DNA of 64,000 bases from Escherichia phage phAPEC8, in sequence record NC_020079.1. One strand, given 5' to 3'. How positions within the stretch are numbered: the first letter of the stretch is position 1; the number at the start of each line of letters is the position of its first letter. Of this stretch, positions 29,070 through 29,148 are shown piece by piece. Under the pieces are notes generated by a model. That model was not told the origin of the DNA and made no database searches. It worked only from the letters and a program-made list of their open reading frames with translations. A program made the translations under genes and the position numbers.

Positions 29070-29148
29070 AGCGGGATAGAGGAGTCTGGTCGTCCTCGCC
29101 AGTTTCATATGCTGGAGATCATTGGTTCAAATCCAATTCCCGCCTCCA
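29070..29148 (+). tRNA. tRNA with anticodon CAT (Met or lysidine-Ile), second CAT tRNA
   Basis: Acceptor AGCGGGA/TCCCGCC with A1-C72 mismatch, anticodon stem-loop CCAGT-TTCATAT-GCTGG, T-arm ATTGG-TTCAAAT-CCAAT, CCA. Confidence 0.6.

Follow-up and report, generated by a model that had tools for sequence, protein, structure and literature searches.

[quoted passage not shown]

The final tRNA gene of the tRNA operon in the window, a 64,000-nucleotide stretch from a Phapecoctavirus-like (phAPEC8-like) E. coli myophage, probably encodes a functional, phage-borne initiator-type tRNA(Met). The gene (29070-29148, + strand) is 79 nt long including an encoded CCA, carries the anticodon CAU, and has an unpaired A1 facing C72. 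The gene itself is already known from many GenBank phage genomes; what is new is that it belongs to a virus-restricted lineage of initiator-type tRNAs whose annotation is inconsistent, and that this lineage systematically breaks three near-universal rules of bacterial initiators with the formylation determinants retained. Few features in biology are as strongly conserved as those of initiator tRNAs, and the lineage can be viewed as a natural mutagenesis experiment on the minimal needs of an initiator.

The gene, its cloverleaf and its surroundings

ARAGORN called 29070-29148 as a tRNA with the anticodon CAT, and Rfam RF00005 matched 29070-29145 over model positions 1-71 of 71 with 50.1 bits (E 4.7e-10), above the gathering score of 29. 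The initial annotation had noted a CAT tRNA with an A1-C72 mismatch here, to be withdrawn if covariance-model boundaries gave a paired G1-C72; RF00005 placed A29070 opposite C29144 and flagged this outermost acceptor pair (1:72) as non-canonical, and the mismatch therefore stands. A different register with G1-C72 was excluded because the covariance model and ARAGORN both give A1/C72, as was a pairing of A1 with U73 and a bulged C72, because C72-U73 stays unchanged in close relatives whose base 1 is C or U. The remaining six acceptor pairs, from G2:C71 to A7:U66, are all Watson-Crick. They join the 5' strand AGCGGGA (29070-29076), in which G2-G6 are as in E. coli tRNAfMet, to the 3' strand UCCCGCC (29138-29144), which is followed by the discriminator U73 (29145) and the encoded CCA (29146-29148). 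The minimum-free-energy fold is likewise a cloverleaf with base 1 unpaired. The D arm (29079-29097; GAGG-AGUCUGGUCGU-CCUC) contains A11:U24, G12:C23 and an 11-nt loop, and the anticodon arm (29099-29115; CCAGU-UUCAUAU-GCUGG, with CAU at 29106-29108) contains A29:U41, G30:C40 and U31.G39, its loop ending in U32 and U38. The T arm (29121-29137; AUUGG-UUCAAAU-CCAAU) carries the same T loop as E. coli tRNAfMet. All of these elements lie on the + strand.

The phage is A+T-rich (38.9% G+C). Over the whole of 26800-29500 it shares 97.6% identity with Escherichia phage vB_EcoM_ASO2A, and this region has matches in 296 phage records. The operon (27143-29148, + strand) contains 11 tRNAs by the ARAGORN count and a twelfth, a tRNA-Ser(TGA) at about 27529-27615 (+), which ARAGORN missed; this gene left a sub-threshold match to the tRNA-Sec model (37.4 bits against 47), is present in the tRNAscan-SE annotation of ASO2A, and left no other trace. 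The CAU tRNA is the last of the series, and an intrinsic-terminator-like hairpin followed by a T run (29264-29290, +), annotated as a terminator in ASO2A, closes the operon. The spacer between tRNA and terminator (29149-29263, +; about 115 nt) forms several hairpins and is strongly structured (z = -2.9 for the fold of 29149-29295), and may represent either a processing element or a further stable small RNA. Matches to RyhB and MicA at 29219-29289 were far under threshold and correspond to the terminator hairpin. Small hypothetical ORFs lie 3' of the hairpin, and the large terminase gene follows about 1.5 kb downstream.

Between tRNA-Ile(GAT) and the CAU tRNA lies a tRNA-like RNA (28994-29063, +) that lacks an anticodon loop. 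Its acceptor-like stem and D-like arm are combined with a canonical T arm, and a 5-bp hairpin with a 4-nt loop takes the place of the anticodon arm; it scored 25.3 bits with RF00005, under threshold, and its fold has z = -3.85. In the Vequintavirinae phages A7_1 and LTH01, unannotated homologues (401-470 in both of our loci, L299 and L300) have a hairpin of 7 bp with a loop of 3 nt and terminate in ACCA at the 3' end; both their acceptor stem and their T stem show compensatory changes. The element is likely to be a conserved structured small RNA. Homology to the tRNA-Leu preceding the Justusliebigvirus fMet gene was rejected, the alignment showing no convincing similarity.

Class membership and the viral lineage

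Bacterial CAT tRNAs are of three kinds, namely initiator, elongator Met and Ile2, and as the class reference we used the three CAT tRNAs of E. coli W3110 together with published discriminators. The phage tRNA was 69.6% identical to tRNAfMet (metY), 59.3% to tRNAMet and 56.8% to tRNAIle2 (ileX), and in BLAST against 5,426 E. coli genomes metY was nearly its sole tRNA match (367 of 368 records). Across 234 bacterial genomes, A11-T24 and G12-C23 are complete discriminators of fMet among CAT tRNAs (Silva et al., PMC1635315). [quoted passage not shown] Of the initiator features, the phage tRNA has CAU, no strong 1:72 pair, G2:C71 and C3:G70, and A11:U24 with G12:C23, but not the three G:C pairs at 29:41, 30:40 and 31:39 or A73; by these last two, strict criteria it is no canonical tRNAfMet. 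Nor does it have the paired 1:72 and Y11:R24 of an elongator tRNAMet, since it carries A1xC72 and A11:U24.

The initial annotation had left open whether the tRNA was initiator-like or a lysidine-Ile tRNA, and had suggested a check of the determinants for formyltransferase and TilS. Those for formyltransferase were present and those for TilS, C4:G69/C5:G68, were absent, so that the initiator-like alternative was supported, with metY as the closest E. coli tRNA, and the lysidine-Ile alternative was not. Its statement that the E. coli initiator has C1-A72 rather than A1-C72 was correct; U73, and the fact that only one of the three G:C pairs remains in the anticodon stem, had escaped it.

A terminal mismatch in one tRNA may be either an accident or a rule, and relatives were therefore collected from IMG/VR with search patterns free of positions 1, 72 and 73. 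Matches to the exact D arm came from 46 viral contigs and those to the anticodon arm CCAGUYUCAUWWGCUGG from at least 120, and we define the viral initiator-like lineage by this D arm and/or the anticodon stem CCAGU/GCUGG. The aligned set comprised 52 distinct full-length viral tRNAs, chosen by D arm or anticodon arm among the matches listed, plus metY. In these relatives 1:72 was paired in only 17%, the pair being A:U or U:A in every case, and neither position 1 nor position 72 ever held a G. The pairs 2:71 to 7:66 were 99.4% paired with compensatory changes in all six, and the D, anticodon and T stems were 95-99.6% paired. Over the whole cloverleaf, 20 of the 21 pairs showed compensatory changes and pairing was 94.6%, with a deficit only at 1:72. 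U73 was present in 13 of the 52 and G39 in 47. Among members identified by the D arm only (n=23), the full set of three G:C pairs was retained in one, G30:C40 in 21, and U31.G39 in 15.

As a control, 1264 distinct non-CAT tRNAs from the same viral loci had G:C at 1:72 in 836 cases (66%) and a mismatch in 65, and A11:T24 in 35 of 1259. A lone terminal mismatch could thus be due to chance, but in this lineage it is systematic. The Fisher P values for these comparisons are very small but nominal, their significance being overstated because the sequences are related, and the qualitative contrast is clear. In the closest subclade, defined by C72/U73, base 1 is never G: Phapecoctavirus has A, Justusliebigvirus has C, and a Klebsiella phage has U, as do several metagenomic contigs; more distant homologues in the Ounavirinae phage phiEa104 and Aeromonas phage Assk have A1:U72. 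At 36 viral loci with a lineage tRNA and further CAT tRNAs, these others were paired at 1:72 in 38 of 39 cases and had C11:G24 in 29 of 39, and some loci carried three CAT tRNAs, one of each type. As the lineage tRNA sits beside elongator-type CAT tRNAs, it appears to form a separate functional class, as expected of an initiator. What the lineage retains of the initiator signature is G2:C71, C3:G70, G30:C40, in most members A11:U24, and a 1:72 that is weak or unpaired and may have any bases but G; U31.G39 accompanies these in most members, and the phage tRNA shares all of them. On one 87-kb viral contig (positions 2000-2586 of our locus L232), three CCAGU...GCUGG anticodon arms lie within 600 bases, which suggests tandem initiator-like tRNA genes.

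BLAST relatives were found in 332 phage records, from phages with hosts such as Escherichia, Klebsiella, Aeromonas, Erwinia, Caulobacter and Synechococcus. About 100 phage genomes carry the sequence in identical or near-identical form, identical copies being present in ASO2A and Mt1B1_P17, and relatives occur in many phage families. When a cellular source was sought in 100,044 representative bacterial and archaeal genomes, the exact D arm occurred in only four stretches, two of them not tRNAs, one tRNA-Asp-like in a candidate-phyla MAG, and one a lineage-type tRNA on a 48-kb MAG contig. From this near-absence we concluded that the lineage is essentially viral. The tRNA on the candidate-phyla (Liptonbacteria) MAG contig (2067-2144 of L298, - strand) has a GTC (Asp) anticodon together with the lineage D arm, GAGGAGTCTGGTCGTCCTC.

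The annotation of these genes is in conflict, probably as a result of their departures from bacterial initiators. The identical sequence is labelled 'tRNA-OTHER / tRNA-Pseudo-CAT' with a pseudogene flag in RefSeq NC_052662.1 (94212-94287; L294 286-361), 'tRNA-Met-CAT' in ASO2A, and tRNA-Met in most other records, and in the BASEL phages JohannJBalmer and EmilieFrey the C1 variant bears the label 'tRNA-fMet'. The records concerned include MZ726793.1 (L001 3778-3856) and MZ501084.1 (L002 300-378), and tRNAscan-SE traces in the GenBank annotations of lineage tRNAs are mutually inconsistent. In Aeromonas phage Ahp1 a relative sits under a feature annotated as tRNA-His. For the related-type phage Sf14, isotype models called neither CAT tRNA fMet and ranked Cys as the top model, U73 being typical of Cys tRNAs (PMC12482277), although the Sf14 tRNAs may not be of the same lineage. 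A survey based on isotype models drew the conclusion that phages as a rule avoid carrying tRNA-fMet genes (PMC10264068). The lineage described here puts that conclusion in doubt and suggests that tRNA-fMet-like genes are present in phages but unrecognised by isotype models. An initiator assignment would correct this annotation, in which the labels range over tRNA-Met, pseudogene and, for the C1 variant, tRNA-fMet.

Proposed role and rival explanations

Judged by its determinants, the tRNA is most likely a formylatable phage initiator. We propose that it would be transcribed with the cluster and trimmed to an RNA running from A1 to CCA, and that host MetRS, whose recognition is dominated by the anticodon (PMC9976931), would charge it via CAU. 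Host formyltransferase would then formylate the attached methionine, as expected from a base 1 that cannot pair with base 72 and from the presence of G2:C71, C3:G70 and A11:U24. The unpaired 1:72 would bar EF-Tu and shield the tRNA from peptidyl-tRNA hydrolase, and IF2 and the 30S P site would accept it via the retained G30:C40, such that it would supply initiator tRNA during infection. Here the lineage agrees with genetics, in that, of the anticodon-stem pairs, G30:C40 is the one essential in E. coli and is by itself enough to sustain it (PMC5389676). Counting against an initiator are U31.G39, which breaks the bacterial rule, U73, the loss of two of the three G:C pairs, the pseudogene and tRNA-Met annotations, and the Sf14 CAT tRNAs without an fMet isotype call (PMC12482277). 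The anticodon stem au/GC/gu is a natural variant that functions in E. coli, with poor growth on minimal medium, and the mutants tested carried G31.U39 where the phage tRNA has U31.G39 (PMC5389676).

These departures could be explained differently if the tRNA, derived from an initiator, had lost the signature of three G:C pairs and now read internal AUG codons as an elongator, or served both purposes, although we consider this unlikely. A single tRNAMet serves initiation and elongation alike in animal mitochondria. The A:U/G:C/U.G anticodon stem would fit such a role, as would the tRNA-Met annotation in most records and the fact that the phage has no other Met-accepting tRNA, its second CAT tRNA being Ile2-like; the weak A1:U72 of some relatives (phiEa104, Assk) could also permit some EF-Tu binding. 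However, a strong 1:72 pair was found in none of the 52 relatives, compared with G:C there in 66% of control tRNAs, A11:U24, G2:C71 and C3:G70 are retained, the viral loci with three CAT tRNAs already have two of elongator type beside the lineage tRNA, and an unpaired 1:72 is the published basis of EF-Tu rejection (PMC5393177). Decay to a pseudogene, with A1xC72 as damage, is very unlikely. The RefSeq label 'tRNA-Pseudo-CAT' on an identical sequence would be in its favour, as would the score of 50.1 bits, the lowest Rfam score among the eleven ARAGORN-called tRNAs of the cluster, but every other stem pair is intact, CCA is encoded, the compensatory changes and near-complete pairing of the lineage leave a deficit only at 1:72, and identical or near-identical copies persist in about 100 phage genomes with relatives across many phage families.

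The chance that the tRNA is instead a tRNA-Ile2, in which host TilS would convert C34 to lysidine and the isoleucine-charged product would read AUA, appears very small. The CAT anticodon is compatible with this, and AUA decoding would be useful to a phage with 38.9% G+C, but in place of C4:G69/C5:G68, typical of Ile2 and needed by E. coli TilS (Silva et al., PMC1635315), the tRNA has G4:C69/G5:C68; A11:U24 and the unpaired 1:72 also speak against it, and among the CAT tRNAs of E. coli, ileX is the one it resembles least (56.8% identity). The role is moreover already filled by the other CAT tRNA of the operon (27143-27217, +), which has G1:C72, C4:G69, C5:G68 and C11:G24, is 76.3% identical to tRNAIle2 (ileX), 67% to tRNAMet and 63% to tRNAfMet (metY), and has a counterpart in ASO2A annotated as tRNA-Ile-CAT by tRNAscan-SE. 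Because the neighbour carries C4:G69/C5:G68 and the final tRNA does not, we rejected lysidine-Ile for the latter and assigned the Ile2 role to the former. The T loop of this Ile2-like tRNA, AUCGAAA, is odd in having A for U at position 54, and other viral contigs likewise have CAT tRNAs with similar A54 T loops (ATCGTAA, ATTGTAA), for example at our loci L140, L154, L193 and L218.

If the tRNA is an initiator, its departures may themselves have a function. A virus-restricted initiator lineage could have rewritten the bacterial signature (C1xA72, A73, three G:C pairs, A38-C39), kept what is required for methionylation, formylation and P-site entry, and changed the sites at which host toxins that disable tRNAfMet act, A1xC72 then being an anti-defence adaptation; we put this forward tentatively, as a reading that is doubtful in its entirety. 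Evasion of host toxins such as VapC and AtaT by this tRNA is plausible. Enteric VapC inactivates tRNAfMet by cleaving it once, between A38 and C39, as recounted in PMC4105405, citing Winther & Gerdes 2011; the equivalent site here is U38-G39, and G39 is shared by 47 of the 52 relatives. According to PMC7595197, the EHEC toxin AtaT acetylates Met-tRNAfMet, a change of C1-A72 to A1-C72 in E. coli tRNAfMet lowers this acetylation to about 20% of wild type, and a purine at 72 is proposed to help stacking with base 73; the phage tRNA has pyrimidines at both 72 and 73. Other phage tRNAs have been proposed to escape anticodon nucleases by loop mutations (PMC10264068). If the reading is true, phage translation would continue to be initiated after inactivation of the cell's own initiator tRNA, and if the altered positions protect against toxins of the VapC or AtaT type, they would constitute a new phage counter-defence at translation initiation.

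Comparison with bacterial initiators and other known systems

A73 is the near-universal discriminator of bacterial initiator tRNAs, and its change to U in tRNAfMet reportedly had only a small effect on methionylation in the 1992 work of Lee and colleagues. Compared with E. coli tRNAfMet, the phage tRNA has the same CAU, a 1:72 position without a Watson-Crick pair, G2-G6/C67-C71, A11:U24, G12:C23, G30:C40, the T loop UUCAAAU, and the variable loop AGAUC of metY. It differs in having A1xC72 rather than C1xA72, U73 rather than A73, A29:U41 and U31.G39 rather than G:C at 29:41 and 31:39, and the anticodon loop UUCAUAU (U32, U38) rather than CUCAUAA (C32, A38), as well as a D loop two bases longer and A7:U66 in place of G7:C66. 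Among 457 bacterial fMet genes, 1:72 is C1xA72 in about 98.5% and A1:U72 or U1:A72 otherwise, and a single divergent gene lacks the otherwise conserved A11:U24 (PMC1635315), so that A1xC72 falls outside the combinations reported. The relaxed bacterial rule for the anticodon stem, R29G30G31..Y39C40Y41 (PMC1635315), is violated by U31.G39, and only the middle pair of the three, G30:C40, is retained.

The nearest cellular parallels are the natural initiator variants au/GC/GC, GC/GC/gu and au/GC/gu of some Mycoplasma and alpha-proteobacteria (PMC5389676, PMC1635315). As in the phage tRNA, the first and third G:C pairs can be gone with G30:C40 retained, and these variants work as initiators. Unlike it, they are cellular rather than viral, keep a purine at 31 and a pyrimidine at 39, which the phage tRNA has reversed (U31.G39), and retain C1xA72 and A73. 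The tRNA-fMet of the BASEL Justusliebigvirus phages JohannJBalmer and EmilieFrey belongs to the same gene lineage, with about 95% identity and a shared D arm, anticodon arm, C72 and U73, but has C1xC72 in place of A1xC72 and lies in a tRNA cluster with a different gene order. The A1-C72 combination itself has a counterpart in the engineered E. coli tRNAfMet described by Yashiro et al. 2020 (PMC7595197); that molecule is a laboratory mutant, otherwise wild-type, with A73 and the three G:C pairs in place, whereas the phage tRNA carries the same mismatch together with U73 and a single G:C pair among the three.
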